Source of the DNA: a virus
Lineage: Duplodnaviria > Caudoviricetes
DNA: 28,742 nucleotides
IMG/VR virus record: IMGVR_UViG_3300017716_000508
Coordinates: 1-28,742 of that record
Direction: 5' to 3' (one strand)
The translations under genes were made by a program, and so were the position numbers. Positions 15,770 to 22,648 of this stretch are shown here, in pieces (the first letter of the stretch is position 1; each line of letters opens with the position of its first letter). The notes below the pieces were generated by a model. It was not told the origin of the DNA and did no database searches. It worked only from the letters and a program-made list of their open reading frames with translations.

Positions 15770-15947
15770 GTGGATTTTCCCATATGACTATATGGCAGTG
15801 GGGGATAGCTTCTTTATCCCTACACTACGCCCTGCCCAGATGAACTACGCGGCGGATATCGCCGCCAAGAAATCCCGCATCAAGGTAAAGATTTATACCT
15901 GTGAGCGGGAGGGGCATCTGGGAATTAGGGTATGGCGTACAGCTTAA
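15738..15947 (+). CDS. small putative DNA-binding protein (FP...MxVGDSFFIP family)
   Basis: WIFPYDYMAVGDSFFIP...GIRVWR motif; start chosen at ATG 15738 (15744 is also possible). Confidence 0.72.
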   Translation: MDMERLTEEPEWIFPYDYMAVGDSFFIPTLRPAQMNYAADIAAKKSRIKVKIYTCEREGHLGIRVWRTA

Positions 15948-18900
15948 AACTCATACCCCATAGCCGTATACATATCGACAAGCTGCATTTTTAACAACGA
16001 TGCCATTAATCTATTATTTTCTAGCATCTCTCGCTTTGTGGCGAAGTCATACTCCGAAGTGCGGCGAATAGCTTTAGCTTCACTACGCAGCTTTTTAAGT
16101 TCGCCGTTGGCATCCTTGTTGTATTGCGCGACCAAGTATTCATCTATTGGATCTTTTTCAAGGTGGGCGTAGTATGCCTCGATATTAGACTCTTCCAACT
16201 CTTTTAACCGGTCTGCCCGTTTATCCAAGTCTTTTTCAATCTTGCCCCACATACGAGCGTCGTAGTCAGAGCGCGTTCCGACAAAGTTGCTCAGTATTAA
16301 ACTGTCTTGTTTAACCCGTTCCATCGTAGAGCGGTTATCTTCGCCGCTGATTGTGAATAAATTCCACCCTGCTACGCCAGCCTCTGCAAAAGCGTCTACG
16401 TAGGCAGAGGCAAAGAAATACATTTCGTTCGGGCCAAACTCAAACCCTGTAATCTCATAAAGAAATGCTGCAGCGTCCGTGAATATCTTAGGTGTATTAG
16501 CGCCGCCCGTATAAACACTGCCGTTCGGGCCTTGGCGGTTGTTATAAATCTCTTGCCCAAGAGAGTTGTAGTTCATGGCAAACTCAACGATGGGCCGCAG
16601 TGGCGCTGGTGCAACTGAGTCAATAATATATTTGCCCGGCTCGTCTATAAGACTGCCCTTGGATACTGGCAGAGGCAGGAATGAGTCCATCAGGATTGGT
16701 ATGGAGTTTGCCAGCACCTCAGTAAACTTGGTGTCAGAGTTACCCAACGAAGCAAACTGAGCGCCGAGGGCGGCAAACGCACCCATGCCGAAGCCCCAAG
16801 GCAGAGTAATAATATCGTTTACCTCATCACCAACAAAGAACCGAGCGTCGCGCATCCAACGGGACATATCATCAGTAGCTACGCGATTGCGCCCGTACTC
16901 GTCCTCACCTGCACCTGCGTATGCAAGGTAATACATAGCCACACCAAACCCGATCATAACGGCTGTAGTATTTCTACCGCGCTTGGCTTGTTCAATAAAC
17001 TTCTTGTCGAATGTTTTTCTATCGCCTTTCTTCCGCAACTCTGGGGACAACTCAGACCATGCACGGTCAGCGGCGGCTTGATACCCCTGAAAAGGCGACT
17101 TTAAAGTAACCCCGGCTTTAATAGACTCAATGGCAGCGGATAGAGCAGGTGCCAGCGGCTCGATAACTCGTACTGCACCCGTAGCAGATGCGTTAAAGAA
17201 CATGAACCACGCGCCCATCTGCTTGCCTTTTAAACCCTTCTCTTCGAAGTTCGCCAGACCTTTGGCAAAGGCAGCGGCGGGTATATTGGCAGCTTTTTCG
17301 GCTTCGGCTTTGCTCATACCTTTCTTCATCAATTCGCCCATTACTTCACTTTTGCGAATCTTGAATGCAGCGGCGCGACTTGTAAATTCAAAGCCAGCCA
17401 TGTACTGATCAAGGAACTTAACAGTTGCTTCCCATTTAGTTATTGCAAATCCTGCCGCGCCGGTTGACCTGTTGGCTTTTTTCAAGAGGTCACGGAATTG
17501 ACCCTTGTCAGTAAAACTACTGACGTACGAGATGTCGCCACCATGTTGTAGATAATCCAGTAAGTCCTTAACGTGCCCTGATTTATCTTTAGCAAGCATA
17601 GCTTTCAGCTTGGGGTTCTTGGCAGGGTCAGCCCCAGCCTCGTAAAACGCTCCGGCTACCTCGTATGATTTATAAAACCCGTTGGCGACTACCTTGTTGG
17701 CAATCGCCCCGATATAGTTGGACGCAGCGCCGGGGGACATATCAATACTGATGTTAAACGCGTTAGCCAGCATGTCACGGACAAAGTTCTTAGGCGCAAA
17801 CGCTACGTTAAAGCGGGTGTGGGTCTGTCCCATAAAGCTTGTTATGGTATTGAGCTTATCTATAAACCCGCTTCCAGTTTGATACGACTTACGAATAGCA
17901 TTACGCAACCGCTCGTTCTTTACCGAGATAACAGCTACTTCACCGTCAGGCATGTAGTGCAAGAACACGTTTTGCTGGTTCATCAACTTGAACAGTTTTT
18001 CGTCTTCTTTTAACTTGTACCGCTCTTCAAACGAGACTATCTTTTCAATCTCGCCGTCTATAAGTTTTTGATTCACAAGGTTGTACAGGACTTTACTAAC
18101 GCCCTTACGTCCAGAGCGCGAAGCGGCAATCGACGCGTCAGCCATCATGGTAAGGATCGGGTTGTCAGGCAGCGTGTAGCGCCCCTCCTGCGTGTATTCC
18201 CTTTGCTGAAGTTCCCTACCCAACTTGTTGTCGCCACCGTAGAACAAGTCAGCGTCTTCCTTCTCTACAGGATTGCCCTTGTATGTGATGTAATTCTTGT
18301 AGCCGTAGAAGTCCACAAGGTTATCAACCTGCGGCGACCAGTAGTTGGCTTGCTTATTGAGCATGATAGTAACGTCAGACAAGGCGCGTAGTTCAGCCAA
18401 GATGTCGTCCATCATTTTCTTTTCAGTTTTGTTCTGATTAAACGTAGCCAAATGCCGCTGTACATCGGAGGTCTCTAACCCACCCAATACGCTGTAGTGA
18501 TAGCTATTTACGTCATGCAAATGAGACTTGCTTGGGTCAAGGTTATTTTTGTCAGCAACGATGTCGTCTAGAAGTTTGCGGTAAGCTTTAGCTAAATCTT
18601 TAGTGGTCATGCCTAGGCTATCGGCGCGTTTGGCAAGTCCGTCTTTTGAGGTAAGTTCGGCAAAGATTTCGGTATGAGCTGTGGCGGGGGTAACTAATTT
18701 TCCAAACCAATTAATATTCTTTGCCATATCGTCCGAGCGTAATGGCACATTTTTCAAATACTTAACAGCGCGGACTTCACTCTCGTGCATAACTTCACCA
18801 TAAGCGGCTAAGCGTTGCAGCACCACATCGACTGATTGGCCTGTCTCTTTTACCATGTTGACCAACATATCGTTGATCTTGTTTATGATTGGGTTGACGT

Positions 18901-21900
18901 AGGTGTTGTCTAAGTTACGGAAGTCGCCCGGTGCAAGCGACATCCTATCGTATAGATTAGTGGCAATACTCTCATCACCAACAACAAGAAGCCCCGCCCT
19001 ATCTAACTGACGTTGCAAGTCTTTGGCTATATAGCTCTCATTTTGATACAGCCTAGTAAATTCTTTAGCTCGATTACCCAAGCCGCCAGAGAACCATGAA
19101 CGGATAGAACCGAAGAAACCTTTTGGTCTCTCAGGCAGCTTCTGCCCTGCAATAAACTCTTCGGTAGACTTGCCCGTGTACTCGCCAGCCTTCTTAGGCT
19201 CCTTGGGCGCTTCCATGAACGACACACCCGTAGCAATACCGGGGGTTTTTGGCGAGAGCGGCGGTCTGACATCGAACGGGCCGGTGATCATCGTCTGGAT
19301 GTTTTCTAGCACTTGGCTAGATACGTTATCGCCCTTGATACCAAGCAGTTGCATCACACGGACAGCAAACTCCCGCAGCGCGTTCGGAACCTTAATGACT
19401 TTGGTGAGCGGCGGTATCTTAGCCATCTCAGCGACAAACTCTGAATTAGAAAACGACTGAGCGAGAAACTCTTTAAGATTGCCGATCTCGTACTTCTTAC
19501 CAAGCGTCTTTGCTACGTGCTGCTGGAGTTTACTGAGGTTTTCCAGCGCAATTTTCTGGATCGGAGTCAGGTTCTGTGGGTTATCCACCGCACGGTCAGT
19601 GATGAAGTGGGCATACTCATGCAGCACGGCAACGTCAAGCATTGTTCCACGTGGAGCATCGGGGTCAACCGTAATCGTTTCATTCGATGGGTCATACTGA
19701 GCGGGGCGATTGCCCTCCACCTTACCGATGACAACGGTCGGCTTGATGCCGAACTGACTAATGACTGCCTCGATACGGGACGCAAACAGCTTGGTAGCCG
19801 GGTCGGTATAGCCCGTTTTTATGGCGCGTAGGATTGTATTGGTATCACCAGAGCGCAGCGCGGCTACAGTCTCTCGCTCAATTATATTTTCGCTATCCTT
19901 CTTCTCTTCGACCTTAACCGTTGTAACCGGCTGCGCCTTGCCTACCTTGGCAGTGGCAACGGATGTACCGGCAGTGGCTTTCTTACGGGCTGCGCGAATA
20001 TCAGAGGCGCTCTTCTTACCTAGCTTGGATACAGCCTTGATCTCTGCCTCAATAGTTTCTTTGCGCTTGGCGTCAACCGCTTTTTTCTGGGACTCGGACA
20101 GCGACTTAACAAACGCATCCCGTGCTTTCTTTTTATTTAGTTGCTCTGGTTTAAGTTTATTTTCGTCAATGACTTTATCAATAGCGGTTTTGCGCTCACT
20201 TTGGGTCATACGACCCAAGATGTCATAAATAGTTACAGTTTCTGGCTTAATAGACGGTATACCAAGTTTTACATTCTCGTTATGTCTGTCAGTATTCGCT
20301 TTATTTTCAGCTTTTATTTGGTCGGCATAAGTCTCTTTGAGGCTGCTCAACGCTGTATCAAACTGATCAAACGCAGTCTCGGCACCGGCGTGGCTGATAG
20401 CCTCGTCCATATTTTTTGGTGGCTCGGCGCGTGTATCTACATCTGCCATAACAAACGGCATGTGTTCTTTTTTAAATACACGTTCAGTCGCAGCGTAGTC
20501 TTTCTTTGCTACCTTGGGTGCAGGTTCTTTCTTCTCTACCTTGGGCGCAGGTTCTTTCTTCTCTACCTTGGGCGCGGGCGTTTCTTCGGCGGCTTGATTA
20601 AGCGCATCAAGTTCCTCTTGCAGAGCGGCTTCCTCTTGCAGAGCAGCTTCTTCATCTACTGCGGGTGCGGCTGCTTTTGCTTGTCCTTCTTCTTTTGTTT
20701 GCTTGGCTTCAGGGGTTTTAATGACATCAGTTTTTCCTAATATGTTGCGGGGGCCTGTTTCAGAAGAATCAAGCTCTGTGTTTAATGTGAAACCTTTTTC
20801 TACAGTTTGACCATACCCATCTGGGTCAAGCGCAGCATTAACTTTTTCTGTTGGATAATCAACATACTGAAGTTCGGCATCTTTACGGTAATTTTTAGCG
20901 TAGTTTCTATCAGTACTAAACCAAGCTTTACCTTCTGTTCTACCCGGCGTAGCACTACCGTGATATAAGCGAGTCATGCCCGGAGGAACAGGCGGTTCCC
21001 CCTCTTCTAATGTAGTACGCTGATTCTCCGCTGAAATAGGAGTTGATTGAGCATTCCCTCCAGTATCATCCAGTCTAGAGTCGATAGGTGTTGTAGATTC
21101 TCCGGAGGCGACTGCCAATTCTCGTGGAGCGCCAGCAGCGCCAGACTGATCTCCTGCGGCGTTAATTCCAGCAGATTGTGCGGCACTGGCTCGGATACGT
21201 TCGACATTTTCGGCTCCCAGTCTTTTTTCAGCTTTACCTAGTGCTTCTGTTTTTCTTTTTACTTCTATCGGTGTAAGTTTTTTACCATCCGAATCCACGC
21301 CAAGCGCAAGTTCAGCGCCGTATCTAATTACTTTTTGCTCATCTGTCTCATTTTTTACTTTTGCAGGAGGCAACTCGGGTTGAGCGCGCGCAGCGTCCAT
21401 CTGTGCGTCTACAGCGGCAAGCGGGTCTGCCTCGGGGGCTGGGGCTGGTGGGTTTATCGCGGCAGCTATCTGCTCGGGTGTAGCGATACCGAAAGGTAGG
21501 GTGGCAGGTGGTTGTGCTTGCGCTTGCGCCTGAATGGCTTGCGCATCTGGGACGATAGCCGCTGCGCTTTGCGCTGCTTGATCTACTGCTTGCTGGGCTT
21601 CTAAGTCTTTCTTTGCCGCGTCGGCTGCAAGTTGATTACGTGTTTCAAGCGCACCAATACCCGCACCCGGTATAAAGCCAAGGGCTGCACCCATTGTGGC
21701 GGCACCCGCTACACCCTTCATCGGGTCAATACGTGGGTCATAAGTCTGAGCGGCAGAGCGCCCAGAGTACTCGGTTACACCTTCTTCAAGAGCTTCTTGA
21801 GCAGCTTCGGACAAGCCAGATTTAATTGCACCGCCCAGAGTTGTGGCAGCGGTTTTACCACCTACGCCAGCTAAGAACCGTTCGACACCGAACGCACCGG

Positions 21901-22648
21901 TTGCGCCACCAATCAAGGAAGGAATGAATGACGCACGGCGGGCCGCAGTAGTTGCGGCTTCTTCTTTTACTTTATCTAGTGATACACCTTTTTCAACTTG
22001 GCTACGGATGTAATCGTTCTTTAAAAGAATCTCGTCAGGCGTATCCATCACCATCTTGTATGCGGAGCCGCCAGCGTCGCCACCTGCCATCATGGCGTTA
22101 GTCACAACACCAGCCCCTAGACCCACTCGGCTTGAGGCTTTCTCAGTAAGTTTTAATAGTTGGGCGGCTTTTACAGACCCCTTAATAGCTAGACCGGGAC
22201 CAAGAAAAGAGCCAGCCGCTTGGGCGGTGGCTTGCAAAGGGTTTTCAGCTATATATCTGGCAACGGCGGCGACTTCTTCTCCACCTGTTTGAGCGGCTTC
22301 CAAATCCTTTTGGAACTTCTCGCGCCCAGCCTTGACCATGTCGCTTTGTAAATTTTCTGTTGTTTTAGTAAATTTATCAATAGCTTTTGAAAACGCATTG
22401 CCCGGCGAGACATAGTCAGCCGCCGCCTCTATACCACCAGCAAACGAGTTAGCCACTGTGATAACCGTATCACTAGCCACCCTTAAAACATTCCTAGACT
22501 CGGGCGCTTTCTTTGGTTCTTCTTTTTGTGGCGCGTTTCTTAGCTCTACTTGGCGTCGTAATTCACGCGCCAGAAGGGTAGCGGCTTCTTTATCCCCAGC
22601 TTTATCCGCGTTCATAAACGCGCGTTCAAGTTCTCTAAAATTAGCCAT
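15944..22648 (-). CDS. giant internal virion/ejection polyvalent protein (ART-like, HExxH zincin, LPD38-like regions)
   Basis: 2234 aa; Gly/Ala-rich hydrophobic N-terminal region; RLYHG...WFSTDRNYAKNY; LHEYAH...KEFLA; C-terminal LPWGFG...LRPIVEFAMNYNSLGQEIY; last gene of the virion arm. Confidence 0.8.
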   Translation of the reverse strand: MANFRELERAFMNADKAGDKEAATLLARELRRQVELRNAPQKEEPKKAPESRNVLRVASDTVITVANSFAGGIEAAADYVSPGNAFSKAIDKFTKTTENLQSDMVKAGREKFQKDLEAAQTGGEEVAAVARYIAENPLQATAQAAGSFLGPGLAIKGSVKAAQLLKLTEKASSRVGLGAGVVTNAMMAGGDAGGSAYKMVMDTPDEILLKNDYIRSQVEKGVSLDKVKEEAATTAARRASFIPSLIGGATGAFGVERFLAGVGGKTAATTLGGAIKSGLSEAAQEALEEGVTEYSGRSAAQTYDPRIDPMKGVAGAATMGAALGFIPGAGIGALETRNQLAADAAKKDLEAQQAVDQAAQSAAAIVPDAQAIQAQAQAQPPATLPFGIATPEQIAAAINPPAPAPEADPLAAVDAQMDAARAQPELPPAKVKNETDEQKVIRYGAELALGVDSDGKKLTPIEVKRKTEALGKAEKRLGAENVERIRASAAQSAGINAAGDQSGAAGAPRELAVASGESTTPIDSRLDDTGGNAQSTPISAENQRTTLEEGEPPVPPGMTRLYHGSATPGRTEGKAWFSTDRNYAKNYRKDAELQYVDYPTEKVNAALDPDGYGQTVEKGFTLNTELDSSETGPRNILGKTDVIKTPEAKQTKEEGQAKAAAPAVDEEAALQEEAALQEELDALNQAAEETPAPKVEKKEPAPKVEKKEPAPKVAKKDYAATERVFKKEHMPFVMADVDTRAEPPKNMDEAISHAGAETAFDQFDTALSSLKETYADQIKAENKANTDRHNENVKLGIPSIKPETVTIYDILGRMTQSERKTAIDKVIDENKLKPEQLNKKKARDAFVKSLSESQKKAVDAKRKETIEAEIKAVSKLGKKSASDIRAARKKATAGTSVATAKVGKAQPVTTVKVEEKKDSENIIERETVAALRSGDTNTILRAIKTGYTDPATKLFASRIEAVISQFGIKPTVVIGKVEGNRPAQYDPSNETITVDPDAPRGTMLDVAVLHEYAHFITDRAVDNPQNLTPIQKIALENLSKLQQHVAKTLGKKYEIGNLKEFLAQSFSNSEFVAEMAKIPPLTKVIKVPNALREFAVRVMQLLGIKGDNVSSQVLENIQTMITGPFDVRPPLSPKTPGIATGVSFMEAPKEPKKAGEYTGKSTEEFIAGQKLPERPKGFFGSIRSWFSGGLGNRAKEFTRLYQNESYIAKDLQRQLDRAGLLVVGDESIATNLYDRMSLAPGDFRNLDNTYVNPIINKINDMLVNMVKETGQSVDVVLQRLAAYGEVMHESEVRAVKYLKNVPLRSDDMAKNINWFGKLVTPATAHTEIFAELTSKDGLAKRADSLGMTTKDLAKAYRKLLDDIVADKNNLDPSKSHLHDVNSYHYSVLGGLETSDVQRHLATFNQNKTEKKMMDDILAELRALSDVTIMLNKQANYWSPQVDNLVDFYGYKNYITYKGNPVEKEDADLFYGGDNKLGRELQQREYTQEGRYTLPDNPILTMMADASIAASRSGRKGVSKVLYNLVNQKLIDGEIEKIVSFEERYKLKEDEKLFKLMNQQNVFLHYMPDGEVAVISVKNERLRNAIRKSYQTGSGFIDKLNTITSFMGQTHTRFNVAFAPKNFVRDMLANAFNISIDMSPGAASNYIGAIANKVVANGFYKSYEVAGAFYEAGADPAKNPKLKAMLAKDKSGHVKDLLDYLQHGGDISYVSSFTDKGQFRDLLKKANRSTGAAGFAITKWEATVKFLDQYMAGFEFTSRAAAFKIRKSEVMGELMKKGMSKAEAEKAANIPAAAFAKGLANFEEKGLKGKQMGAWFMFFNASATGAVRVIEPLAPALSAAIESIKAGVTLKSPFQGYQAAADRAWSELSPELRKKGDRKTFDKKFIEQAKRGRNTTAVMIGFGVAMYYLAYAGAGEDEYGRNRVATDDMSRWMRDARFFVGDEVNDIITLPWGFGMGAFAALGAQFASLGNSDTKFTEVLANSIPILMDSFLPLPVSKGSLIDEPGKYIIDSVAPAPLRPIVEFAMNYNSLGQEIYNNRQGPNGSVYTGGANTPKIFTDAAAFLYEITGFEFGPNEMYFFASAYVDAFAEAGVAGWNLFTISGEDNRSTMERVKQDSLILSNFVGTRSDYDARMWGKIEKDLDKRADRLKELEESNIEAYYAHLEKDPIDEYLVAQYNKDANGELKKLRSEAKAIRRTSEYDFATKREMLENNRLMASLLKMQLVDMYTAMGYEF
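20499..20579 (-). repeat. 3 x 27-bp tandem repeat (PAPKVEKKE)
   Basis: tctttctt(t/c)(g/t)ctaccttggg(t/c)gc(a/g)gg(t/c) units at 20499, 20526 and 20553. Confidence 0.9.
20612..20653 (-). repeat. 2.3 x 18-bp tandem repeat (EEAALQ)
   Basis: ttcctcttgcagagc(g/a)gc twice, plus ttcttc. Confidence 0.85.
20656..20727 (-). CDS. possible nested basic micropeptide (23 aa, +1 frame of giant gene)
   Basis: AGGA-N7-ATG; MSLKPLKPSKQKKKDKQKQPHPQ*. Confidence 0.3.
   Translation of the reverse strand: MSLKPLKPSKQKKKDKQKQPHPQ
21007..21207 (-). CDS. probable overprinted gene (66 aa, +1 frame inside giant gene)
   Basis: GGGAG-N6-ATG; amphipathic helical sequence LTPQEISLALLAL...LSTLDWMILEGMLNQLL, while the host frame is a low-complexity linker. 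Confidence 0.55.
   Translation of the reverse strand: MSNVSEPVPHNLLELTPQEISLALLALHENWQSPPENLQHLSTLDWMILEGMLNQLLFQRRISVLH

Follow-up and report, generated by a model that had tools for sequence, protein, structure and literature searches.

A conserved small gene nested in the linker of a giant phage ejection protein gene, one of a putative pair flanking a variable cargo slot

The virus record IMGVR_UViG_3300017716_000508 (Duplodnaviria; Caudoviricetes), a linear 28.7-kb record that is 45% complete and whose full 28,742 nucleotides are referred to here as the window, carries a small gene wholly inside the gene of a giant virion protein. This nested gene, which we call gene A, is almost certainly a real and expressed gene, and comparison with related viruses indicates that it belongs to a widespread, unannotated family of nested genes and is one of a pair flanking a swappable cargo slot. 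Gene A (21007..21207, minus strand) runs from ATG to TAG and encodes an acidic two-helix protein of 66 amino acids (aa). Its start lies 1441 nt into the giant gene (15944..22648, minus strand), which encodes a 2234-aa virion/ejection (large polyvalent) protein, and this places gene A in the +1 frame, where it overlaps residues 481-548 of the giant (host) protein. A Shine-Dalgarno (SD) sequence, GGGAG (21214..21218, minus strand), is found 6 nt upstream of the ATG.

Conservation of gene A in related giant genes

An earlier note, made by a model from the letters of this DNA, had pointed out the open reading frame (ORF) of the 66-mer, and its coordinates, +1 frame, sequence and GGGAG-N6-ATG arrangement all proved correct. 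The note had also described the main frame over this region as a linker. Across 112 host proteins, the residues G/A/P/S/T/V/E/Q/D make up 87% of the gene A overlap and large hydrophobic residues 6%, compared with 55% and 27%, respectively, in the last 600 aa of the same proteins. The giant gene of the window contains 7 same-strand nested ORFs of at least 40 aa, and related giant genes hold by chance a mean of 2.9 other nested ORFs of at least 55 aa, 0.38 of them SD-led. Because nested ORFs of such length are common in giant genes, gene A seen in this one window would be weak evidence by itself; it is conservation in relatives that, judged from sequence, puts it far beyond chance.

The first protein search with gene A recovered six IMG/VR loci, four of them 92-97% and two 40-44% identical, and in all six the small gene lies in +1 within a long open frame. 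Further protein searches added small hypothetical proteins, 17 in one search and 5 of the 11 matches in another; the remaining 6 of the 11 were dropped from the alignments as long proteins with repeated matches, and the two that were inspected are long repeat proteins. A degenerate pattern of the central motif found 73 IMG/VR stretches, and all 73 matches are nested in +1 within host frames of 611-3057 aa, the short ones being cut by contig ends. With a looser pattern, about 620 IMG/VR stretches were reported by the tool's own estimate; 120 of these were examined together with 3 contigs from genome bins, and 123 of 123 are nested, 79 in frames of at least 1000 aa and 44 in frames open to the end of the locus. 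A pattern without the stop yielded 93 metagenome stretches, comprising 91 family members, every one nested in +1, and 2 false matches that are not nested. These sets overlap, and the first two amount to 161 distinct proteins; identities among the first 63 unique family A genes range from 27 to 100%. The three bin contigs (L208, L209 and L210) belong to bins labelled Polaromonas, Nanopelagicales and Saccharibacteria, and probably represent co-binned phage DNA.

Conservation together with nesting, which the earlier note had left to be checked in homologous loci, therefore holds in the +1 frame of an open giant frame throughout these overlapping sets, and no family A member has a stop in that frame, so the result by which the note said it would be refuted did not arise. 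Outside gene A, the +1 frame contains 4.4-4.9% stops per codon. The gene A stop itself is kept at the same codon in 69 of 73 loci and in 89 of 91 metagenome members. An SD-like 4-mer precedes 56 of the 63 unique family A starts, against 352 of 5983 (5.9%) background ATG/GTG codons in the +1 frame, a count that is generous to the family as its starts were picked partly by SD score.

To estimate prevalence without selecting for gene A, loci were fetched by searching with the neighbouring primase and taking the 80 top-ranked of 327 matches and the 80 top-ranked of 596; the primase alignments were built from carriers, so the sample represents relatives of carriers. These 160 loci include 106 with a giant ORF and 89 with its 5' end. 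Gene A is present in 84 of the 89, nested in +1 in 83 of them, the other being L378, in which the host frame is broken just past gene A. The five loci without gene A, two of which are identical, represent clean loss in four distinct lineages, and no copy was found elsewhere in these five records, one of which is at least 90% complete.

The predicted protein is modeled with helices at residues 17-29 and 43-64 (predicted local distance difference test score, pLDDT, 76; predicted template modeling score, pTM, 0.53). Family A proteins are acidic, with a median net charge of -5, and have no membrane segment. The gene A protein has no match in Pfam, PHROGs or PDB sequences, none in NCBIfam (best E-value (E) 0.033), and its model gave best Foldseek hits of E 2.1 (pdb) and 0.99 (viral). 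In the ESM Atlas, unnamed clusters of 57-67 aa were found at 0.77, below the level of a lead, and a second search found none. An o-spanin of the Rz1 type was ruled out, as the window protein has neither Cys nor a hydrophobic signal and its host gene encodes an ejection protein; TnpV (PF14198) and other curated families were ruled out by the lack of any profile match.

Selection on the two frames

The ratio of non-synonymous to synonymous change (omega), estimated from 24 disjoint close pairs over 38 columns outside the search pattern, is 0.20 in the small frame (bootstrap 0.14-0.26) and 1.6 in the host frame (1.09-2.48). When all pairs are binned by rising, uncorrected distance, omega for the small and host frames is 0.13/1.46, 0.30/1.07 and 0.60/1.35. 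The host value above 1 is not read as positive selection because the synonymous sites of the host frame are the second codon positions of gene A. This bears out the proposal that the alternate frame is the one under selection. Outside the search pattern, Ala23 (63/63), Leu53 (63/63) and Leu27 (62/63) are fixed while the corresponding host residue varies. With random synonymous codon choice in gene A the host frame stays open in 8% of trials, which suggests that it is kept open on purpose. Both frames are thus maintained, with selected residues in the small frame only and a host frame that is open and otherwise free, and this supports the dual-coding region of the earlier note, with selection on the +1 protein.

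Two readings would do without a separate small protein. In the first, no protein is made and what is conserved is an element of the DNA or RNA, for instance a recombination anchor, as might be suspected from the way likeness between distant phages collapses onto the stretch of gene A. Change at sites synonymous in the +1 frame is 0.37 per site, against 0.07 at doubly non-synonymous sites, Leu codons switch between CTN and TTR, and the SD, start and stop are all kept, so that this reading has almost no chance of being correct. In the second, the +1 frame is an alternative C-terminus reached by a +1 ribosomal shift, which would give a short form of the giant protein. Such a form is suggested by the deposited PBC5 record, in which the ORF of the N-terminal part runs into an unrelated nested ORF and ends with it, and by the broken host frame of L378; both are single records and may be sequence errors. 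Against it, the SD and start codon are both conserved and suitably spaced, several loci (L015, L031, L042 and L050) have a +1 stop directly before the ATG, and the upstream bases examined show no slippery site in common. A longer protein carrying the family A domain in fused form was also not found, which is weak evidence. We consider a frameshift product very improbable.

Exchange of gene A between phages

Similarity among gene A copies follows the surrounding genes poorly, with Mantel rho values of 0.13 for the N-part of the giant protein, 0.28 for its C-part and 0.36 for the primase (104 of the 112 hosts). The giant gene is itself mosaic (N-part versus C-part rho 0.23). Gene A reassorts against the N-, zincin- and C-parts of the giant protein and against the upstream gene, and individual pairs of loci illustrate this. 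L014 and L082 have an identical gene A and unalignable C-termini, and L146 and L152 carry near-identical copies in unalignable giant proteins. The small proteins of L121 and L128 are 90% identical while their N- and C-parts cannot be aligned and their primases share 21% identity; the only blastn match between these two loci spans -12..+177, that is, from the SD to the stop of gene A. Between the window and L056, likeness ends at +201, the gene A stop, and resumes at +470, the SD of the second nested gene described below. These boundaries indicate that gene A moves between distant phages as a cassette from SD to stop. Since L121 and L128 share a gene A of 90% identity within unalignable giant proteins, the partner of gene A would not be a lineage-specific phage domain.

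Gene B and the cargo slot

Clustering of other SD-led nested ORFs of the giant genes uncovered a second family, gene B, which is absent from the earlier note. In the window, gene B (20656..20727, minus strand) is also in the +1 frame and encodes a very basic 23-aa peptide with a K-P-L-K-P-S-K-Q motif and a K/R-rich tail; its SD, AGGA (20735..20738, minus strand), is 7 nt upstream of the ATG. Of 117 giant genes, 47 contain the motif in the +1 frame, and none contains it in either of the remaining frames. In each of the 48 copies the motif is preceded, two codons upstream, by ATG, GTG or TTG; an SD is present in 45. A pattern scan reported about 320 IMG/VR stretches (tool estimate), 119 of which were examined; the host frame is open in 117 of these and an SD-like sequence is present in 104. 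The Ser codon of the motif is AGC in 54 matches and TCN in 65, and omega over the six codons outside the pattern (all pairs) is 0.43, against 0.93 in the host frame. That the gene B peptide binds DNA inside the capsid is a guess. In one giant gene (L141) gene B is present twice, at a distance of 113 codons, the outcome expected if an anchor had been duplicated.

Gene A lies upstream of gene B in 45 of the 75 loci with enough flank, and the two are within 300 codons of each other in 42 of 112 hosts, where the slot between them encodes 2-173 aa. The 23 slots of at least 40 aa fall into 17 unrelated groups. In the window the slot (20739..21006, minus strand), from the gene A stop to the gene B SD, holds a 91-aa segment with some likeness to ART domains that fills it exactly, given that the likeness to L056 stops at the one boundary and resumes at the other. 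Genes A and B thus appear to flank a swappable cargo slot, and we infer that they act as recombination anchors: conservation at the protein level would keep both genes fixed on either side of a hypervariable, in-frame cargo slot.

Several further observations concern this region of the giant genes. In L017, L018 and L026 the slot between genes A and B carries MORN-repeat cargo (PF02493 in L018). In the non-carrier L253, the segment that replaces gene A directly before gene B (host residues ~470-530) presumably resembles the gamma winged helix of FtsK. In 4 of 112 giant genes (L064, L079, L109 and L112) there is yet another nested +1 family, SD-led and ~70 aa long, which lies deeper in the cargo region at host residues ~1370-2012. 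Past gene B, the linker of the window's giant protein contains short tandem peptide repeats of the KVEKKEPAP type (~20500-20580, minus strand).

The ART-like segment and the zincin as partners

The earlier note had the ORF ending about 30 nt before an ART-like domain and had suggested that its product could be an inhibitor or immunity factor for the effector domains. The position stands, as an RLYHG motif (host residue 560) is found ~35 nt past the stop; 'ART-like' refers to a motif. The ART likeness of the segment (host residues 548-638) is what we take to be a YHG and F-S-T resemblance, and the segment has no Pfam ART match. A single host protein out of 74 contains it, as does a single locus out of 86, and the four relatives whose small proteins are 92-97% identical to gene A have a different sequence past the stop. 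Its sole match in a cultured phage is a 78% identical piece of UAM5_00036, a 4387-aa gene of Ralstonia phage UAM5, and this giant gene has no family A match despite holding a homologue of the segment.

Some observations would suit a cognate inhibitor or immunity protein directed at one of the giant protein's enzyme domains, either the ART-like segment or the zincin: the adjacency of gene A to the segment in the window, an HExxH motif downstream of gene A in 94 of 112 hosts, and ART-PolyVal in 5 of the 21 hosts scanned. ART-PolyVal, where present, begins at least 300 residues downstream of gene A, and the long slots after gene A hold 17 unrelated groups. The zincin fares little better as a partner, since 13 of 112 carriers have no match to the zincin profile and all five non-carriers keep HExxH. 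As the ART-like segment accompanies gene A in so few hosts, and a zincin is neither required for the presence of gene A nor sufficient for it, a cognate immunity role is unlikely, and for the ART-like segment co-occurrence appears already to have largely refuted it; taken as a whole, we regard the idea as improbable.

Possible functions of gene A

Three readings of what the gene A protein does lie close together, and none of them is shown. The one we prefer, at a probability of roughly one in three, is that it docks through its C-terminus on a Lon-type protease of the bacterium. A phage inhibitor of Lon, PinA, exists in T4. Family A ends in one of L, V, I or M followed by H or Q in 74 of 74 proteins and in 90 of 91 metagenome members, in sets found with patterns that do not fix the end. 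The last residue is His in the window and in 48 of the 74, and Gln in 26; the penultimate residue is L/I/V in 73 and Met in the remaining one; and the third-last is L/I in 1 of 161 members and mostly Pro or Gln. The window protein ends V-L-H. According to the parts of PMC11986505 that deal with these signals, Lon prefers C-terminal degrons of the form x-L/I-L/I/V-H, with examples ending TLH, TVH and SLH, and the third-last position varies among those degrons as well. Family A resembles these His degrons (SulA/Y2853/Smg type) in having a fixed free end with a hydrophobic residue and then, in the window and in 48 of the 74, His, and differs from them, as far as the same parts of PMC11986505 describe them, in that about one third of its members end in Gln and that the third-last residue is mostly Pro or Gln.

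Under the protease-docking reading, an internal SD on the late mRNA would allow gene A to be translated while the giant protein reads through the same DNA as a flexible linker. The product is likely to be a small, soluble, two-helix protein made late in infection, and its fixed S-x-L-H/Q terminus would be the docking end. The target would be a conserved bacterial protein, most likely a Lon-type protease, and not the neighbouring ART-like segment, and the effect may be that huge, linker-rich ejection proteins are spared host proteolysis while they await packaging. A bacterial partner of any kind is to us an even bet, because portability between distant phages together with a fixed free C-terminus would be best explained in this way.

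Several points weigh against protease docking. The fit to the Lon motif is partial, both in the 26 of 74 members that end in Gln and in the third-last residue, and a degron could merely make the gene A protein short-lived, with another job. In all sets examined gene A is never found outside the giant gene, with no standalone copy in the pattern sets, and this fits a job on the giant protein better than a free, host-directed one. The mosaic nature of the giant gene (N versus C rho 0.23) means that poor co-variation is partly expected anyway. The bin contigs with gene A carry three different phylum labels and are probably co-binned phage DNA, so no bacterial host can be read from them.

A job on the giant protein is a possibility that we hold tentatively. 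Here gene A would encode a loading helper or chaperone for the giant ejection protein, as P1 Ulx is for DarB. Translated off the shared mRNA as soon as the hydrophobic N-terminal domain has been made, it would either shield that domain or escort the protein into the prohead, with loose binding that serves many variants. Its constant architectural spot, at a median host residue of 508 past the N-terminal domain, agrees with this, as do a hydrophobic 19-mer upstream of gene A in 103 of 112 hosts and the retention of gene A in 84 of 89 loci with dispensability in a few. Cultured-phage giant genes of the DarB-like kind hold other SD-led helical +1 ORFs in their linkers, and Ulx is described in the relevant passages of PMC9024508 as a head protein aiding DarB localization. 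The idea, which the earlier note had raised as an ejection-protein chaperone, is weakened by the reassortment described above, which sets gene A apart from every part of the giant protein as well as from the gene upstream, and by near-identical copies in unalignable giant proteins (L121/L128, L146/L152), and it leaves the strictly fixed free C-terminus unexplained.

Rather unlikely, though still among the leading readings, is that gene A encodes an accessory protein, made late or co-injected, that would act in counter-defence, superinfection control or lysis timing or serve as capsid-internal cargo; the linker would house it merely as the one site able to accommodate a second frame. Horizontal exchange and clean loss in four distinct lineages are what such a gene would display, a second, unrelated basic peptide (gene B) shares the same linker, and an embedded spanin layout is reported, in the portion of PMC6139136 concerned with it, to have given no functional advantage past coding capacity. 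This reading names no target, and an ordinary accessory gene would hardly be expected to persist in as many as 84 of 89 loci.

The giant gene and its neighbourhood

The window is laid out as a replication arm (DNA polymerase A, SNF2 helicase and a DUF927 primase-like gene) that converges on a virion arm. The giant protein has a Pfam match to LPD38 (E 1.8e-10; residues 1926-2099, 16352..16873, minus strand), an N-terminal match to phrog_18222 (E 3e-56) and a weak match to the DarB-like phrog_10089, and the gene upstream of it matches phrog_4287, a DNA ejection protein. An HExxH zincin motif (residues 1010-1014; 19607..19621, minus strand) was read from the sequence. The LPD domain, the zincin HExxH and the late virion neighbourhood that define large polyvalent proteins are all present. 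An all-helical, Gly/Ala-rich N-terminal domain (residues 40-345; 21614..22531, minus strand), always upstream of gene A, was modeled with pLDDT 74, and a structure search with it gave no fold match. A promoter scan of the window was unremarkable (4 sites versus 2.2 expected).

The giant gene fits the class of large polyvalent proteins described by Iyer et al. 2017 (PMC5512222), with LPD38 or LPD39, a zincin MPTase, sometimes ART-PolyVal, and a place beside virion genes. It differs in its nested genes flanking a cargo slot, which are absent from the main-text passages on the class; the words 'overlap', 'frameshift' and 'TnpV' have 0 occurrences in the main text of that paper.

Nested frames in cultured phages and other embedded genes

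Judged by their polymerases, RHph_TM27A and KPP25 come closest among cultured phages (36-38%). A tblastn search of cultured phages with gene A returned only matches of E 2 or above. The family A profile found nothing in stretches of UAM5, KPP25 (most of whose giant gene lay outside the scan), RHph_TM27A and Rollin, and nothing among the SD-led nested ORFs of SopranoGao, Skulduggery, CF418P1, POI1126, UAM5 and part of KPP25, so that these searches found no cultured carrier of gene A.

In each of SopranoGao, POI1126, UAM5, Skulduggery and CF418P1, a linker of the giant gene contains an unannotated, SD-led +1 ORF of protein-like composition. Those of SopranoGao (L215 5597-5920, plus strand), POI1126 (L219 6087-6401, plus strand) and UAM5 (L087 10653-10973, plus strand) encode ~105 aa and are weakly TnpV-like, and the ORFs of Skulduggery (L216 7658-8044, plus strand; 129 aa) and CF418P1 (L218 9563-9766, plus strand; 68 aa) are unrelated. 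No protein-like SD-led nested +1 ORF was found in PTXU04, RHph_TM27A or Rollin, and PTXU04 yielded no SD-led nested ORF of any composition. The POI1126 ORF matches 21 records of 12 cultured phages, with the frame of the nested ORF checked only for POI1126, SopranoGao and PBC5. The TnpV-like ORFs resemble gene A as SD-led helical ORFs in a +1 linker of a giant virion gene and differ from it in their length of ~105 aa, in having no family A profile match and in a weak PF14198 match (E 0.0035, below the cut-off).

In the PBC5 record (L220 4710-11300, 10727-20506) the giant gene is split and orf33 ends with the nested ORF, which one frameshift, whether error or natural, would explain. A phrog_938 match of the TnpV-like family was considered as a natural fusion and rejected, as it traces to this record. 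In Itty13 (L221), the gene annotated beneath the match to the POI1126 ORF runs on the opposite strand; three opposite-strand ORFs are annotated over the apparent giant gene, a likely mis-annotation.

Embedded +1 phage genes are known from the spanins (PMC6139136). In the account of lambda given there, Rz1 shares several features with gene A: it is small, is read in the +1 frame, and lies entirely within a larger gene on the same strand (Rz), whose own frame is prone to disorder. In contrast to Rz1, gene A encodes no lipoprotein, having neither Cys nor a hydrophobic signal, and lies outside a lysis cassette; its host is an ejection protein of 2,000-3,000 aa, and here the small frame is selected and the large one passive. 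P1 Ulx, as characterized in the section of PMC9024508 devoted to it, is a separately annotated 17-kDa gene whose small late product aids localization of the giant injected DarB to the head. There is no sign of homology between it and gene A, family A having no PHROG match. A full-text search of mainly open-access literature found no publication on genes nested in giant ejection or DarB-like genes.

Implications

Gene A and gene B would represent two conserved protein families that gene callers overlook throughout a large set of uncultured podophage-like viruses. On this evidence, a featureless linker in a giant injected protein can be the by-product of a hidden gene, and hidden nested genes may mark the edges of swapped cargo modules. 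With rather low confidence, we propose a broader picture in which giant injected proteins are built round swallowed small genes, where genes A and B are portable cassettes that anchor an integron-like slot for effector domains, gene A disarms host proteolysis, and the same design, with other small genes, is present and unannotated in cultured DarB-like genes. As cultured phages share this layout, the question can already be tested, and a deletion or tag placed in the linker of a giant ejection protein may also destroy a gene that has gone unnoticed. If the anchor model is true, such paired nested genes would give phages an integron-like way to swap the effector domains that they inject.

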